A DNA stretch of 29,796 bases. It comes from an uncultured Enterobacteriaceae bacterium. GTDB lineage: Bacteria > Desulfobacterota > Binatia > Bin18. The translations under genes were made by a program, and so were the position numbers. Location: assembly GCA_964618735.1 (NCBI GenBank), contig CAZUFQ010000003.1, positions 1 through 29,796 of the forward strand, given 5' to 3'. The notes under the pieces are model-generated. The model was not told where the DNA came from and did no database searches. It saw only the letters and a program-made list of their open reading frames with translations. The first letter of the stretch is position 1; every line of letters starts with the position of its first letter. Below, one piece after another: positions 4,377-27,729 of the stretch.

Positions 4377-4392
4377 CGGCACGAGACTTGCA
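4377..4392 (+). promoter_or_regulatory. Sigma-54 promoter for the DUF4142 gene
   Basis: CGGCAC-GAGAC-TTGCA, 74 bp upstream of the ATG at 4467. Confidence 0.8.
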
Positions 4393-4466: not shown

Positions 4467-5099
4467 ATGAATACTCGGTTTATCACTGGCCTGGTAGGCT
4501 TGGCAGGCGGTTTCTTGTTGCTGATCGGCAATACCTCCGCCTTTGCCGACGAAGCGAAGAATGATCCCATGGCCCAGTCTTTTCTGAAAGAAGCCGCACA
4601 AGGGGGCATGACGGAGGTCACCTTGGGACAAATGGCGGCGGAGAAAGGGCAGAATGAAGCTGTTAAGAACTTCGGCCTCCGTATGGTGAAAGACCACGGG
4701 CAAGCAAACGAGGAACTCAAGAACCTCGCTAAATCAGAAGGCGTGACTATACCGTCTGATATGGGAAGCGAGGGGAAAGAGCTACAACAACGCTTGCAGA
4801 AGCTCTCTGGCGCTGAGTTTGACCAGGCCTACATGCAAGAAATGCTGAAAGATCACAAAAAAGATATAGAAGCGTTTAACCAACAGGCCCAGAATGGGAA
4901 TGACCCAGAAGTAAAAAATTGGGCCGCGAAAACTCTGCCAACGTTGCGTGAACATTATCAGCTGGGGCAGACAGCAGCAGAAAAAATCGGTCTGAAGACC
5001 TCGGCTGCCGACTCGACTGATCGCCTCAGTTCGAGCAGTAAGAGCGATATGGAAAAAATGTCTCCTCCAGAACGGATGGGAGCAGCGCAATCGCGCTAA
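4467..5099 (+). CDS. Exported DUF4142 (ferritin-like) protein
   Basis: Signal peptide ending SAFA. FLKEAAQGGMTEVTLGQMA, VKNFGLRMVKDHGQAN, FDQAYMQEMLKDHKKDI, TLPTLREH. AAGGAG RBS. Confidence 0.92.
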   Translation: MNTRFITGLVGLAGGFLLLIGNTSAFADEAKNDPMAQSFLKEAAQGGMTEVTLGQMAAEKGQNEAVKNFGLRMVKDHGQANEELKNLAKSEGVTIPSDMGSEGKELQQRLQKLSGAEFDQAYMQEMLKDHKKDIEAFNQQAQNGNDPEVKNWAAKTLPTLREHYQLGQTAAEKIGLKTSAADSTDRLSSSSKSDMEKMSPPERMGAAQSR

Positions 5100-5125
5100 G
5101 AACAGCTTGAATCAAGTGTCGCGAG

Positions 5126-5163
5126 AGAGAAGAGGTCCCTCCTCACCTACCTCTTCTCTTTTT
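5126..5163 (+). terminator. Terminator-like hairpin between convergent genes
   Basis: AGAGAAGAGGT (5126-5136) and ACCTCTTCTCT (5149-5159) form a perfect 11-bp stem, followed by TTTT. Confidence 0.6.
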
Positions 5164-5942
5164 CAAGAGGCGGCTTTTTTCCTCCCCCGAGCCGCCTCTC
5201 CTTTTGTTTCTACAAGAGAAAATTCCGCTACTAGAGGAACGTGGTCGGAGGCAACAATAGCAAGCGGGCTTCTGTGCAGAGTCAATTGTTCAAGCTGCAA
5301 GGTAGGGTCAAAGTAAATATGGTCAAGATGAATAAGTGGGAGCACTCCTGGATACGTTCGTCTATGCCCAAGATGATAGCGGACATCAACACTTTCCAAG
5401 TGAGTAGCCAGTAAGCGTGACGGTAAACCCCGCACCCAGTCGTTGAAGTCGCCCAGCAACACTCGAGTGCCAGTTAGCGTTGTATCCCCAAGGATCCCTG
5501 AGCCAACCAGCTTCCGCGCCTGATGTCGTCGCTCGCCAAACGTCAAGCCTAGGTGCACATTAAAGACATGTAATAAATGGCCAGCGGGCCACTCGACATC
5601 AATGCGCAAACACGCGCGCCGTTCGTGTCGACGCCAGCTTAGGTCATAGTTGGTCGTAGAGCGAATAGGAGCCCGACTCAACACCACGTTGCCATACGAG
5701 GCGCCGCGCAAACGACGCGCTTCGCCAAGACAATAGTGATAAGATAATTTATCCGCGAAAAACTGCCCTTGGTTGAGTTCAGAAACGCCTCCTTCAAGAC
5801 AAATAACTTCCTGCAAGGCAATAATATCAGCGTTGAGTTCATGGAGGACTTTCACTATGCGAGCGGGATCGACTTGTCGATCAAGTCCACGACTCTTGTG
5901 AATGTTATAGGTGGCGACCCGGATACGCGGTAGTTTGCTCAT
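5163..5942 (-). CDS. Endonuclease/exonuclease/phosphatase family metal-dependent hydrolase (YbhP-like, 259 aa)
   Basis: VATYNIH, DIIALQEV, YGNVVLSR, VFNVHLGL, LLGDFND, LDHIY, ASDHVPL. The start is placed at MSKLPR; the RBS is weak. Confidence 0.9.
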   Translation of the reverse strand: MSKLPRIRVATYNIHKSRGLDRQVDPARIVKVLHELNADIIALQEVICLEGGVSELNQGQFFADKLSYHYCLGEARRLRGASYGNVVLSRAPIRSTTNYDLSWRRHERRACLRIDVEWPAGHLLHVFNVHLGLTFGERRHQARKLVGSGILGDTTLTGTRVLLGDFNDWVRGLPSRLLATHLESVDVRYHLGHRRTYPGVLPLIHLDHIYFDPTLQLEQLTLHRSPLAIVASDHVPLVAEFSLVETKGEAARGRKKAAS

Positions 5943-9539: not shown

Positions 9540-9555
9540 AGCAATCCCTGTGCCA
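9540..9555 (-). promoter_or_regulatory. Sigma-54 promoter for prkA-yeaH
   Basis: Perfect TGGCAC-AGGGA-TTGCT, 93 bp upstream of the ATG at 9446. Confidence 0.85.
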
Positions 9556-9801: not shown

Positions 9802-9817
9802 TGGCACAGGAGTTGCT
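9802..9817 (+). promoter_or_regulatory. Sigma-54 promoter for the DUF4383-DUF1080-like unit
   Basis: Perfect TGGCAC-AGGAG-TTGCT, 40 bp upstream of 9858. Confidence 0.85.
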
Positions 9818-21898: not shown

Positions 21899-22477
21899 TT
21901 ACCGGGAGCCTGGTGAGGAGCCTAACGTTCCTGGGGCTCCTGACATGCCAAGATTATTGTTAGAAGAACCATAGGGAGAGCTTCCAAAATTTCCCGGAGT
22001 TCCAGAATAGTTAGAACCAGGAGAGCCTAACCTTCCCGGCGCATTCAGAGAGCCAGAATTAGTGCTTCGATTACTATAAAAAGAACTCTCAGGCGTCATT
22101 GCGGTATTAGGACTTCCATAATCAGGGCTTCCGTAATTCGGACTTCTATAATCAGGACTTGCAAGAGGCCCGGTTGGATTAGACAAGGTAGACCCCGGAG
22201 CACCTAAGGTTCCCGGGCTGCCTAAGGCTCCCGGGCTGCCTAAGGCTCCCGGGCTGCCTAAGGAGTTGGGGGCGCCATAGTTGGGAAAAGATCCGAGAGA
22301 ACCGGGACTTCCCGGCGCTGTGCCGCCCCCTGAAAGTCCATTGGAGGGGGGCGGCCCGCCGAATCCTCCGGCCATTCCGTTCGGCGCGTTTCCTTGCGCT
22401 AAAACACATGGCACGGGCGCAGCAGCAAAAAGACCAGTCATAAAGACTGCCGCCCAATACGATTTTACATTGTACAT
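21899..22477 (-). CDS. Secreted Gly/Ser/Pro/Asn-rich low-complexity protein (192 aa)
   Basis: AAAGGAG RBS before MYNVKSY; signal peptide ending CVLAQ; mature region made of GSPG/GAPG and SP(D/N)YG repeats. Confidence 0.75.
   Translation of the reverse strand: MYNVKSYWAAVFMTGLFAAAPVPCVLAQGNAPNGMAGGFGGPPPSNGLSGGGTAPGSPGSLGSFPNYGAPNSLGSPGALGSPGALGSPGTLGAPGSTLSNPTGPLASPDYRSPNYGSPDYGSPNTAMTPESSFYSNRSTNSGSLNAPGRLGSPGSNYSGTPGNFGSSPYGSSNNNLGMSGAPGTLGSSPGSR
22203..22263 (-). repeat. 18-bp tandem repeat encoding (LGSPG[A/T]) units
   Basis: CCTAAGG(T/C)TCCCGGGCTG three times plus a partial fourth copy on the + strand. Confidence 0.9.
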
Positions 22478-22533
22478 AATAATCTCCTTTCTCAGGACGT
22501 AGCATACAATTGTCAGCTTTTTCTCTACGGAAG

Positions 22534-22549
22534 AGCAAAAGCTGGACCA
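22534..22549 (-). promoter_or_regulatory. Probable sigma-54 promoter for the Gly/Ser/Pro-rich gene
   Basis: TGGTCC-AGCTT-TTGCT, 56 bp upstream of the ATG at 22477. Confidence 0.6.
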
Positions 22550-22595
22550 TGACCACATGCTTCTGTCACAGCTTTACACATGGGCCCGTTTATCC

Positions 22596-22678: not shown

Positions 22679-22954
22679 ATGATGTCTCGTCTCAGTCGTT
22701 TATTGCTGATCATTGTCCCGTTCCTGGGAATACTTTTTTCTGCTCCTATTGCTTCCGCTTGGTATCCTCATCATCAGGGGCATTATTGGCGGCATCATCA
22801 TCGTTATCATCACTATTGGCGGCGCCACGCCTACCGGCCCCCCTACTATTATGATCGCGACTGGTACGCCTATCGTCGGCCTGATAGATACGAGCGCTAC
22901 AGCAGAGTCGATCCTTACTATTATTACGGGTACAGAGGACATCGGGATGACTAA
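22679..22954 (+). CDS. Secreted His/Tyr/Arg-rich small protein (91 aa)
   Basis: AAAGGA RBS; signal peptide ending ASA; mature WYPHHQGHYWRHHHRYHHYWRRHAYRPPYYY...GHRDD. Confidence 0.75.
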   Translation: MMSRLSRLLLIIVPFLGILFSAPIASAWYPHHQGHYWRHHHRYHHYWRRHAYRPPYYYDRDWYAYRRPDRYERYSRVDPYYYYGYRGHRDD

Positions 22955-22967
22955 CACCCGCGAGCCC

Positions 22968-23001
22968 CGAGAGGAACACAAAACCGCGCGTGTTCCTCTC
23001 G
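22968..23001 (+). other. Intercistronic stem-loop
   Basis: CGAGAGGAACAC and GTGTTCCTCTCG form a perfect 12-bp stem with a 10-nt loop. There is no U-tract, so it is more likely a stability/processing element than a terminator. Confidence 0.55.
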
Positions 23002-23029
23002 ACCCTTACGCTTTGATGAAGGACGAGGG

Positions 23030-23332
23030 ATGGCTGTGCCAAATCTAGTTGATAGAGTACAGGTGCAAAAGCTTCTCGACGAACGAGCACAGCTTATCGA
23101 AGTGCTCCCTGCTAAGGAGTATGAAAAAGAACATCTTCCTAAGGCGAGAAATATACCCCTTGCGCGTCTCACCCAGCAGACCACGGCAGTGCTTCAACGA
23201 AATCAACCGCTCATCGTCTACTGTTATGACGCCCAGTGAGACCTGAGCGCCCGGGCCGCGGGTCGGCTCGAGACGTATGGTTTTACTCAGGTCTTTCGCT
23301 ACCTCTTAGGCAAAGCAGTTTCATCTTTGTAG
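23030..23332 (+). CDS. Rhodanese-like protein, probable selenoprotein (UGA at 23237-23239 read as Sec70; CxxxxU)
   Basis: LIEVLPAKEYEKEHLPKARNIPL...PLIVYCYDAQ-[TGA]-DLSARAAGRLETYGFTQVFRYLLGKAVSSL-TAG. The sequence after the UGA supplies the S..AA..L...GF..V..L.GG-type C-terminal half of the rhodanese fold. Confidence 0.75.
23245..23269 (+). promoter_or_regulatory. Candidate bacterial SECIS hairpin
   Basis: Folded by hand: GAGC(23245-48)/GCTC(23266-69), a G-C pair, a bulged U, CCCG/CGGG, and apical loop GGCCG starting 15 nt after the UGA. Confidence 0.55.
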
Positions 23333-23586: not shown

Positions 23587-23602
23587 TGGCACTGCTCTTG
23601 CT
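23587..23602 (+). promoter_or_regulatory. Sigma-54 promoter for DUF748-xfp-ackA-PLD
   Basis: Perfect TGGCAC-TGCTC-TTGCT, 30 bp upstream of the ATG at 23633. This also shows that the ORF-track start at 23438 is too far upstream. Confidence 0.85.
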
Positions 23603-25362: not shown

Positions 25363-27729
25363 ATGGCGAATACGCTGTCGCTACATGAGATGAACGCCAT
25401 TGACGCCTACTGGCGGGCGGCGAATTATCTATCAGTCGGACAAATCTATCTCTTGGAGAACCCTCTTCTTAAGGAGCCTCTCCAACTAGCCCATATCAAG
25501 CCGCGGCTGCTCGGACACTGGGGCACGACTCCCGGCCTGAACTTTATCTACGTCCACCTTAACCGTGTCATCAAGAAGTTTAACGTCAACGTCATTTATA
25601 TTACTGGCCCCGGTCACGGCGGGCCTGGGATAGTGGCCAATGTCTATCTGGAGGGGACCTACAGCGAGGTGTACCCCAATATCACACAAGATGCAGATGG
25701 AATGCGGAAACTCTTTAAACAGTTCTCCTTTCCGGGCGGTATACCGAGTCATGTCGCACCCGAGACTCCGGGCTCTATCAATGAAGGGGGAGAACTCGGC
25801 TATGCTCTTTCCCACGCTTACGGCGCGGCGTTTGACAATCCCGACCTCATTGTGGCCTGCGTGGTTGGCGACGGCGAGGCTGAGACTGGTCCGCTAGCCA
25901 CCTCATGGCATTCTAACAAATTCCTTAACCCTATTAGCGACGGAGCGGTGCTGCCGATTCTCCACCTCAATGGCTACAAAATCGCCAACCCAACAGTGCT
26001 CGCGCGAATCAGCCATGAAGAACTCGAGAGTCTTTTTCGCGGTTACGGGTACACGCCTTATTTTATCGAAGGGGACGATCCCGCAGTCATGCATCAGTTG
26101 ATGGCGTCTACCCTGGACGCTGTGCTTACTGAGATCCGTGCGATCCAGAGTAAAGCCCGAACAGAAAAAAACCCTACCCGTCCCCGCTGGCCGATGATTA
26201 TTTTGCGCACCCCCAAAGGCTGGACCGGGCCGCGCACGGTCGATGGCGAGAAGACCGAAGGGTATTGGCGGTCGCATCAGGTGCCAATGGCGGAAATGGC
26301 GACGAAGCCTGAGCACGTCAAGTTGCTCGAAGCCTGGATGAAAAGTTACAAACCAGAGGAACTTTTCGATAAGACCGGAAAGCTGCAGCCGGAGTTGGCG
26401 GCGCTCGCCCCCACGGGGCCATACCGTATGGGCGCTAACCCTCATGCGAACGGCGGCATGCTGCTTAGAGACTTACGTATGCCCGACTTTGGCGCCTACG
26501 CCGTTGCTGTCCCTGACCCCGGCGCCGTGAACGCCGAAGCAACACGAGTGCTCGGGGGCTTCCTGCGCGACGTGATGCGCCTCAACCTGGAGTCCCGCAA
26601 CTTTCGGGTGATGAGCCCGGATGAGCTGACCTCGAATCGACTCGGCGCTTTATTGGATGTGACGGATCGAGCCTGGATGGCCGAGACGCTGCCGGAGGAC
26701 GATCATCTGGCCTCAAATGGCAGAGTGATGGAGATCCTAAGTGAGCACACGTGCCAGGGCTGGCTTGAAGGCTATCTCCTTACCGGTCGCCACGGTCTCT
26801 TTGCAACCTATGAGGCTTTTGTCCATATAGTAGATTCGATGTTTAATCAGCACGCGAAATGGCTTAAGGTCACGACTGAAGACCTGCCGTGGCGGGCGCC
26901 TATCGCGTCGCTTAATTATTTGTTGTCGTCGCACGTCTGGCGGCAGGATCATAACGGGTTCTCCCACCAGGACCCCGGCTTTATCGATCATGCTGTCAAT
27001 AAGAAGGCGAGTGTCATTCGTGTCTACCTTCCGCCTGACGCCAACACCCTTCTTTCCGTCGCTGATCACTGCCTGCGCAGTCGTAACTACGTCAACATCA
27101 TCGTGGCGGGAAAACAGCCGGCGCTGCAGTATCTCGACATCGACGCCGCAGTGAAACACTGCACGGCCGGGATCGGAATCTGGGAATGGGCGAGTAATGA
27201 TAATGGCGCCGACCCCGACGTGGTGATGGCTTGCGCTGGCGATATCCCGACGTTAGAGACCCTCGCGGCAGTGTCTCTTCTTCGAGATTACTTTCCTGAC
27301 CTTAAAGTGCGTGTCATCAACGTGGTTGACCTGATGAAACTCCAACCTCAAGAAGAGCATCCACACGGCCTGTCACATCAGGACTTCGACACTCTTTTTA
27401 CCACAGACAGGCCCGTGATTTTTGCCTATCATGGGTACCCCTGGCTCATTCACCGTCTTACGTATCGTCGGACGAATCACGACAATCTCCACGTCCGCGG
27501 CTACAAAGAAGAAGGTACGACGACCACACCTTTTGACATGGTGGTCCGCAACGATATCGATCGCTTCCATCTAGTGGCTGAGGTGATCAATCGGACGCCA
27601 AAACTTGGATCCCGTGCGGCCTATGTCAAGCAAGCGCTCCAGGACAAGCTTATCGAACACCACGAGTACATCACCAAACACGGTGATGATTTACCGGAAG
27701 TCCGCAATTGGCAATGGCGCAAGATGTGA
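25363..27729 (+). CDS. xfp: Phosphoketolase (xylulose-5-P/fructose-6-P)
   Basis: [25 protein letters not shown]-binding GDGEAETG...[39 protein letters not shown]. Confidence 0.97.

Follow-up and report, generated by a model that had tools for sequence, protein, structure and literature searches.

A small rhodanese gene with an in-frame UGA codon: probable deletion-truncated copy of a rhodanese–CBS selenoprotein gene

A small rhodanese gene interrupted by an in-frame UGA codon was analysed in a 29,796-nucleotide stretch of contig CAZUFQ010000003.1 (assembly GCA_964618735.1); this whole stretch is referred to as the window. Comparison with related loci gives good grounds to regard the gene as a copy, truncated by a deletion, of a gene for a selenoprotein in which a rhodanese domain is followed by a pair of CBS domains. 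An earlier reading of the window (the original prediction) had proposed a hidden selenoprotein gene with a selenocysteine insertion sequence (SECIS), and the sequence comparisons presented here make this very likely to be correct for the family and for the descent of the window gene. In the proposed mechanism, the UGA at 23237 would be decoded as selenocysteine (Sec), placed five residues past the catalytic Cys in an active-site loop of the form C-x-D-x-x-U, and a hairpin at 23252–23270 would bring SelB with Sec-tRNA(Sec) to a ribosome that has paused on the UGA codon, by analogy with E. coli fdhF. The window copy would then be a 3'-truncated allele, yielding 100 residues with read-through and 69 residues without.

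The open reading frame (ORF) on the forward strand (23030–23239) comprises 69 codons and ends with ...PLIVYCYDAQ, followed by TGA at 23237–23239. Beyond the TGA the frame is open for another 30 codons (DLSARAAGRLETYGFTQVFRYLLGKAVSSL) and is closed by TAG at 23330–23332. The 69 residues alone score 35.8 bits with the Pfam Rhodanese model (PF00581, cut-off 22.2) and the 100-residue read-through scores 45.9 bits, so that the part after the UGA contributes to the rhodanese signal; the read-through spans positions 4–92 of the 102 positions of the hidden Markov model (HMM). The protein passes the PF00581 threshold and has a Cys at the catalytic position, as Cys65 (TGT) aligns in the same invariant column as the catalytic Cys65 of E. 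coli GlpE. Between Cys65 and the helix that follows, the loop exceeds that of GlpE by two residues, and the UGA lies within it, five residues after Cys65. The 69-residue ORF ending at a TGA, with an open frame beyond it and a CxxxxU motif, is thus as originally described. The family N-terminus (MPxxIDR) fits a start at GTG 23036 (V-P-N-L-V-D-R), which may, judged by this likeness, be the true start.

DNA of relatives was obtained by exact-protein look-ups, a scan of GTDB with one genome per species, and a metagenome scan. The GTDB scan yielded 177 stretches that encode a relative and the metagenome scan at least 524 confirmed matches; the best 80 of each were taken. Among the 169 loci with the motif, the codon at the UGA position was TGA in 166 and TGC in 3 (L014, L065 and L070), and neither TAA nor TAG was found; TGA was present in 77 of the best 80 of the 177 GTDB stretches. 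A private nonsense mutation, for which the original prediction had allowed should the genome lack the Sec machinery and close homologues all carry TGC or TGT, therefore does not account for the TGA: the close homologues have TGA as well, and the sequence after it is conserved. At the protein level, a first search yielded 24 homologues with identities as low as 45%, all of 65–73 residues and all stopping at the same residue after VYCxDxx. The expectation that gene callers truncate the family was borne out in this set, with 24 out of 24 ending at the UGA. In an exhaustive HMMER search of representatives of clusters at 50% identity, 99 of the best 150 stop precisely at the UGA residue and 10 have Cys at this position.

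A profile search with full-length read-throughs returned thousands of relatives. Among the best 120 full-length database proteins, the residue at the UGA position was Cys (C-x4-C) in 100 and 'W' in 17. Two of the latter were checked in DNA (loci L171 and L172), and both have a TGA that had been read with genetic code 4. P0025, P0055 and 15 others are rhodanese/CBS proteins predicted by the Joint Genome Institute (JGI) with Trp at the Sec position; a table-4 translation artefact can disguise selenoproteins as seeming Trp variants. The real terminators of the same genes are TGA (63), TAG (46) and TAA (19), and since TGA is the commonest of these, it is not reassigned.

Downstream of the UGA the motif U-D-[LM]-S-P-R-A-A-x-R-L-E-x-L-G-F is kept in frame in the relatives. 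Their frame passes G-K-A-D-W, in the last rhodanese helix, and continues into the CBS pair to a total of 225–240 residues; gene callers annotate this second part as a separate in-frame 'CBS' gene. The CBS pair is present in all complete relatives, for instance in the full-length protein of locus L091, which matches Pfam Rhodanese and the CBS pair (PF00571, 41.6 bits). At the level of sequence, the alternation of TGA and Cys together with the conservation downstream is the standard signature of a Sec/Cys family. Among the carriers are Gaiellales, Rubrobacter, Solirubrobacterales, Pseudonocardia, Micromonospora sp. CB01531, Acidimicrobiia, Dehalococcoidia, Thermomicrobia, Ardenticatenaceae, Dormibacterota, Acidiferrales, Gemmatimonadales, Udaeobacter and a metagenome-assembled genome (MAG) labelled 'Deltaproteobacteria'. 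This host range is plausible, because Actinobacteria (including Rubrobacter xylanophilus), Chloroflexi and Acidobacteria are on record as decoding Sec (PMC1794560), and up to 46–49 selenoproteins occur in MAGs of Dehalococcoidia (PMC13326102).

The hairpin downstream of the UGA was analysed in an ungapped alignment of 145 unique TGA-form sequences, counting nucleotides from the U of the UGA. The family stem pairs nucleotides 16–23 with 27–34 around a 3-nucleotide loop (G, U/G, G/C) and has 8 base pairs (bp) in most relatives; the element can alternatively be described as a 6-bp stem with a 7-nucleotide loop. RNAalifold recovers the 6-bp core, which is also part of the individual minimum free energy (MFE) fold of 115 of the 145 sequences. 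Over 135 distinct sequences, 96.6% of the cells of the stem alignment were paired, compared with 29–54% when the 3' arm was slid by 1–3 nucleotides. In the window the element pairs 23252–23258 with 23264–23270, has the loop CGGGU and starts 12 nucleotides after the UGA; where the family stem has its innermost pair, the window has a C·U mismatch. A stem-loop just 3' of the UGA with a G in the apical loop, as expected of a SECIS, is present.

Constraint on the RNA was evident at synonymous sites, with codon use in the remainder of the same genes as background. Numbering the codons from the UGA, the third base of Arg5 was a purine in 141/145 sequences (background 50%), Ala6 was GCY in 142/143 (51%), Ala7 was GCG in 142/143 (39%), Arg9 was CGG in 140/141 (30%) and Leu10 was CTY in 140/141 (51%). 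Every one of the near-fixed synonymous bases is the base needed for pairing, and the neighbouring sites Pro4, Glu11 and Gly14 vary freely. The Cys-form genes (n = 5) break 7 of 25 synonymous constraints versus 20 of 725 in the Sec forms (Fisher, 1e-5), and the hairpin is wholly lost in two of the five. A GC-rich hairpin after the UGA had been predicted, and it is indeed conserved in relatives, but relatives do not share the register then proposed (start at +6, bulged U, loop GGCCG), which needs a G at 23249 that is specific to the window (Ala GCC versus Pro CCN). An extension of the lower stem, pairing Ser3 (AGC) with codons 12–13, was also considered and dropped, a pairwise column scan having shown no consistent pairing. 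The Ser codon at position 3 (window 23246–23248) is AGY in 128/138 sequences (background 47%), with no consistent partner found; this bias may be a second RNA-level constraint, located between the UGA and the stem.

The truncation of the window copy emerges from alignment with L091 (Ga0170475_100116321), which is 91% identical in nucleotide sequence over the retained 302 nucleotides and encodes a full protein of 236 residues. Window positions 23015–23316 align with L091 317–618, and 23348–23426 with L091 1139–1217 (blastn and MAFFT). Between the aligned blocks L091 has 520 nucleotides, where the window has about 30 unrelated ones; the lost segment of about 520 bp takes in the final helix of the rhodanese domain, the whole CBS pair and about 96 nucleotides of 3' flank. 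The protein sequences agree fully from the UGA to ...LLGKA, after which L091 continues with DWAASGLPTEGK... and the CBS pair and the window copy ends with VSSL and the stop; the last 4–5 window codons are junction sequence without relation to L091. The deletion takes away the near-invariant D95, W96 and G100 and the helix 92–98 of an AlphaFold2 (AF2) model of a Cys-form homologue. A complete rhodanese fold, including the C-terminal helix (G-K-x-D-W), is accordingly found in the full-length relatives and is lacking in the window copy, as is the C-terminally fused CBS pair. The proposal that the 30 residues after the UGA 'exactly' finish the domain of a 100-residue protein had to be abandoned, given the length of the relatives and the deletion in the window. 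With the last rhodanese helix lost, the function of the window copy is doubtful.

Over the 95 retained codons, the window and L091 differ by 20 synonymous and 3 non-synonymous changes (proportions of differing sites pS 0.29 and pN 0.014). Past the UGA, 5 changes are synonymous and none is non-synonymous; the segment was therefore translated for most of the divergence, a result that does not date the deletion. The junction recurs in the Logan contigs L089 and L090, and an assembly artefact was rejected on the ground that these are two independent assemblies (of the same strain) with an identical junction. Between the window and L089, 39 of 40 differences fall within 350 bp (26530–26882) of the phosphoketolase gene, a clustering that suggests strain mixing or recombination in that gene.

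Three other accounts of the gene were considered. The 100-residue read-through could be a complete and functional stand-alone Cys/Sec rhodanese, the deletion having made, or marking, a natural short form. The start codon, ribosome-binding site, Cys65, UGA and SECIS stem are all intact in the window, the retained part shows no additional disabling mutation, the Pfam alignment still reaches from HMM position 4 to 92, and single-domain rhodaneses of about 100 residues (GlpE, PspE) are common. On the other hand, every other complete relative has the CBS pair, the near-invariant residues and the helix named above are deleted, the VSSL tail is junction filler, and the short allele is known from one strain only. 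Frameshifted or truncated copies also occur elsewhere (L081, L111, L144 and L149/L152), and decay of the rhodanese–CBS gene therefore does take place. We regard a natural short form as possible but rather unlikely, and in choosing between a recently disabled relic and a working mini-selenoprotein we lean, by a small margin, towards the relic.

It is very improbable that the gene is an ordinary nonsense-mutated pseudogene of a Cys-type rhodanese, in which the TGA would be a plain stop without translation beyond it. Cys forms (TGC or TGT) do exist and are one mutation away from TGA, the Sec machinery of the carriers is presumed, and the window copy is damaged in any case. A private mutation, however, cannot produce TGA, to the exclusion of TAA and TAG, at one codon in 166 loci of Actinomycetota, Chloroflexota, Dormibacterota, Acidobacteriota and others, and a pseudogene leaves unexplained both the purifying selection on the frame past the TGA and the RNA-level constraint tied to the TGA forms; for the family as a whole, the pseudogene reading is contradicted. 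We likewise give hardly any credence to a TGA that is tolerated without Sec, by production of two polypeptides (a half-rhodanese, and a CBS protein restarting at an ATG two codons on), by near-cognate read-through or by an alternative code. Codon +2 is Leu, Val or Gln in 43% of the sequences, including the non-start codon CTC, against ATG in 82/145, the point at which gene callers begin the second gene. It is implausible that a rhodanese fold would be divided within its active-site loop, and the Cys forms are single chains. Some contigs have been translated with table 4 by JGI pipelines, but the rhodanese–CBS genes use TGA as their main terminator, and alternation specifically with Cys is a hallmark of Sec.

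Several observations weigh against a truncated copy of a SECIS-bearing selenoprotein gene. The window is alone among the 145 unique Sec-form sequences in having a U at the innermost pair position. The MFE of window 23237–23300 is −26.9 kcal/mol (z = −1.78), and 12 of 200 shuffled sequences fold equally well. An Rfam scan of the whole window at a permissive E-value gave no SECIS family and nothing at 23030–23332. Across the family, compensatory covariation is almost absent (a single case, C-G to U-A), and the shuffle controls are unimpressive. Covariation is scarce because both arms encode conserved residues (R-A-A-x-R-L-E), and the case for the hairpin is consequently made by synonymous-site statistics from related, non-independent sequences. 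The truncated allele comes from one strain, the window, L089 and L090 being one base apart outside the variable phosphoketolase stretch. No tRNA was found in the window, and tblastn of E. coli SelA, SelB and SelD (from NC_000913) against the window and all loci (854 kb) gave no match, so the Sec machinery is not linked to the rhodanese–CBS gene. The sole tRNA-SeC called by ARAGORN in 171 sequences (L086 1490–1572, in a Chloroflexia MAG, 1.1 kb upstream of the gene) was dismissed as a false positive, because it lies inside a 431-residue ORF for a transporter of the major facilitator superfamily type and Rfam finds no tRNA-Sec there. There are also no mer genes in the window, and the proposals on selenenylsulfide formation and mercury handling given below are drawn from context. 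With a weak single-sequence hairpin, no tRNA and no Rfam match, it is the comparison with relatives, and not the window sequence alone, that decides. The neighbouring DF-family domain was also inspected for a Sec codon of its own, which would show Sec use in the same genomes; all copies found have TGC or TGT.

The AF2 model of the Cys-form homologue has a predicted local distance difference test (pLDDT) of 95.6 and a predicted template modelling score (pTM) of 0.85. The first Cys closes the central strand, and the second Cys (the Sec position) is in the loop, 1–2 residues before the next helix; on this model, the loop is the catalytic cradle of the rhodanese fold. Genomic neighbourhoods were examined within 3 kb in 83 loci (GTDB genomes and three others). 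Any merB/DF-family (NF049942), merA or merR-family gene was present in 34 loci (41%), an ArsR-family regulator in 18, a DsbD_2-like membrane protein in 12, a MerR-family regulator in 9 and MerA (TIGR02053, 593 bits, cut-off 454) in 8. The MerA representative that was scanned (484 residues) matches the 465-position core model from end to end. The same-strand gene directly upstream encodes a MerB-like alkylmercury lyase (PF03243, 90 bits), a DF-family domain or a fusion of the two, and typically overlaps the rhodanese–CBS gene or lies within about 10 nucleotides of it; the stand-alone 'DF family (seleno)protein' domain scores 91.7 bits with NF049942 (cut-off 70). Examples of mer-type neighbours are L008 3294–3998, L031 3237–3998, L046 1021–2115, L061 18–1469 and L036 1424–1840. 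P0052 (396 residues) is a fusion of rhodanese, CBS pair and peroxiredoxin (AhpC/TSA, Redoxin), and in L113, from position 451 onward, the rhodanese(Sec)–CBS frame runs into an LLM-class oxidoreductase, giving a read-through of 566 residues; an LLM-type gene is a neighbour in 8 loci.

These neighbours (merB, merA, merR/arsR-type, DF-family thioredoxin-like, DsbD-like and the peroxiredoxin fusion) would point to thiol/selenol chemistry, in mercury/organomercury handling or in redox stress. In the full-length protein of 225–240 residues, the Cys/Sec pair could be a centre that forms a selenenylsulfide or binds soft metals, the CBS pair a nucleotide-sensing regulatory module that gates it, and MerB and MerA, or thiol peroxidases, its partners. 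A bolder and tentative reading, to which we attach distinctly less weight than to the truncation, is that the rhodanese–CBS C-x4-U proteins form an uncatalogued, abundant selenoprotein family acting as a nucleotide-gated Cys/Sec relay in mercury/organomercury detoxification, and overlooked in annotation because its genes are cut in two at the UGA by gene callers. The family would belong largely to aerobic soil Actinomycetota, Chloroflexota and Dormibacterota, with a relative in 177 or more GTDB species and 99 or more clusters at 50% identity that end at U, and it is possible that Hg(II) is passed between MerB and a core-only MerA without an N-terminal metal-binding domain. Two large mer-diversity surveys returned by a literature search do not mention rhodanese.

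For the window locus by itself the finding is modest, a broken copy of a family gene; the family and its mer linkage are of moderate interest. The databases that were searched show the gene as a 67-residue 'rhodanese' fragment plus a separate 'CBS domain protein', or sometimes with a spurious Trp (genetic code 4), and recognising the rhodanese–CBS family would correct hundreds of records. It would also add a selenoprotein, and thereby a sign of selenium use, in soil lineages such as Gaiellales, Rubrobacter, Solirubrobacterales, Pseudonocardia, Micromonospora, Dormibacterota and Ardenticatenaceae. The recurrent site downstream of merB or a DF-family gene, near merA and merR/arsR-type genes, leads to the hypothesis that selenium is linked to mercury resistance.

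The features of the window gene are collected in Table 1.

Table 1. Features of the UGA-containing rhodanese gene, with their positions in the window and the evidence for each.
Feature	Position	Strand	Evidence
Purine-rich ribosome-binding tract AGGACGAGGG	23020–23029	+	Read from the sequence; could serve ATG 23030 or GTG 23036
Coding part before the UGA, 69 codons, N-terminal two thirds of the rhodanese domain	23030–23236	+	PF00581, 35.8 bits alone
Codon TGT of Cys65, canonical catalytic Cys of the rhodanese fold	23222–23224	+	GlpE alignment; AF2 model of Cys-form homologue
In-frame UGA, predicted Sec codon, residue 70	23237–23239	+	TGA/Cys alternation among related loci
Coding part after the UGA, 30 codons (DLSARAAGRLETYGFTQVFRYLLGKA + VSSL) and TAG	23240–23332	+	In-frame conservation in all relatives
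SECIS-like hairpin, 7 bp, loop CGGGU	23252–23270	+	Pairing and synonymous-site statistics across relatives
Deletion junction, about 30 nucleotides of filler in place of about 520 bp of L091 (619–1138)	23317–23347		blastn and MAFFT versus L091

Neighbours in the window include PrkA/DUF444, DUF2382/YflT, Dps, PLD, CAP, DUF748, phosphoketolase and acetate kinase genes. The best named matches to PrkA come from a 'Deltaproteobacteria bacterium' MAG, at 86% identity, and from MAGs of the candidate phyla radiation (CPR) that are evidently mis-binned. The gene had been placed in a sigma-54 stress regulon. Three perfect sigma-54-type −24/−12 sites (TGGCAC-N5-TTGCT) are present in the window, at 9540–9555 (−), 9802–9817 (+) and 23587–23602 (+), before prkA, a DUF4383 gene and a DUF748 gene, but none is directly upstream of the rhodanese gene. 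One further site, at 4377–4392 (+), has 1 mismatch; matches with at most 2 mismatches number 23, compared with 14 ± 3.6 in shuffled sequences, and the scanned ORFs of the window included no gene for a sigma-54 activator. Further TGA-split genes were looked for in the window, and only chance or adjacent-gene cases turned up, such as the acetate kinase gene followed by an in-frame PLD-like ORF.

A perfect 12-bp inverted repeat (22968–22979 and 22990–23001, CGAGAGGAACAC ... GTGTTCCTCTCG, with a 10-nucleotide spacer) lies in the gap that separates the start of the rhodanese gene from a small ORF upstream; it is not followed by a run of T and may act as a site for a regulator or form an RNA hairpin. 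Two low-complexity ORFs have a signal-peptide-like hydrophobic N-terminus and no Pfam match: a His/Tyr/Arg-rich ORF of 91 residues at 22679–22954 (+) (…WYPHHQGHYWRHHHRYHHYWRRH…), and a Gly/Ser/Pro-rich ORF of 219 residues at 21899–22558 (−), in which an 18-nucleotide tandem repeat (22203–22263) encodes GSPGAL units. At 5080–5204 (+), between the DUF4142 and Exo_endo_phos genes, there is a weak match (33.2 bits, E 0.009, under the gathering threshold) to the alphaproteobacterial ar14 / CcsR1 'CCUCCUCCC-motif' stress small RNAs, with two hairpins that have C/U-rich loops and a terminal run of U.

The family hairpin resembles the SECIS of E. coli fdhF in lying within the coding sequence directly 3' of the UGA. 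In fdhF (NC_000913) the stem starts at nucleotide 15 and the loop is at 22–25, in the rhodanese–CBS family the stem starts at 16 and the loop is at 24–26, and both loops contain G-U. Unlike the fdhF element, the family stem is continuous, without a conserved bulged U, and has no Rfam match; binding of SelB is predicted. The C-terminal half of the relatives matches in fold the CBS-pair (Bateman) modules of AcuB, CBSX1/2, MgtE and OpuCA (template modelling score normalised to the target, 0.5–0.87). The CBS pairs of these proteins bind adenine nucleotides or c-di-AMP. Nucleotide binding by the CBS pair of the relatives is likewise predicted, and the window copy is without such a module. A structure search of the PDB found no entry that spans rhodanese and CBS (query template modelling score at most 0.48).

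Single-domain thiosulfate sulfurtransferases of the GlpE/PspE type share the fold and the position of the catalytic Cys, and are close in size to the truncated window product. The family differs from them by a loop two residues longer, a second redox residue (Sec/Cys), a native CBS pair, and an NCBIfam score of about 20–25 bits, far below the cut-off of 102. The closest solved rhodanese, in sequence as well as in fold, is the domain of BH2092 from Bacillus halodurans (PDB 3NHV and 3O3W; E 2e-15), with a root-mean-square deviation of 1.4 Å over 108 columns and 28% identity. BH2092, a structural-genomics entry, shares the C-x4-C loop (YCWGPACNGATKAA versus YCYDYQCDLSPRAA) and differs in having Cys instead of Sec and no CBS pair; we know of no function assigned to it.

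That rhodanese-type selenoproteins had already been reported from computational surveys was rightly stated in the original prediction. A 2026 review of 119 selenoprotein families/subfamilies lists five rhodanese forms, UxxS, UxxG, CxU (NF041203 rhodanese_LYCAU), UxxG and UxxxxU (NF045694 TsoB), and its catalogue holds no CBS-containing rhodanese form and none written CxxxxU (PMC13188914). A literature search found no paper that brings together selenoprotein, rhodanese and CBS domain, neither rhodanese nor CBS is mentioned in the papers on deep-Sep and BSepDB, and NCBIfam release 20 (June 2026) contains no model whose cut-off the C-x4-U/CBS family reaches. The catalogued forms have in common with the present family that Sec is in or beside the catalytic loop and that they are known mainly from computational screens for Sec/Cys pairs. 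TsoB has the same x4 spacing (U-x4-U), and LYCAU retains the catalytic Cys with Sec downstream. With the TsoB model (NF045694) the family scores 27.6–28.6 bits, from the rhodanese part only, against a cut-off of 805, and it has one Sec and no DsbD domain; with the LYCAU model (NF041203) it scores 17.3–24.9 bits against a cut-off of 115, its motif being VYCxDxxU. Form 1 (UxxS; Geobacter WP_010941598.1), compared by motif notation only, is formally fitted by U-D-[LM]-S. Overall, rhodanese-domain selenoproteins are already established computationally, and the C-x4-U plus CBS architecture stands outside the catalogued forms, with the comparison to form 1 being one of notation.

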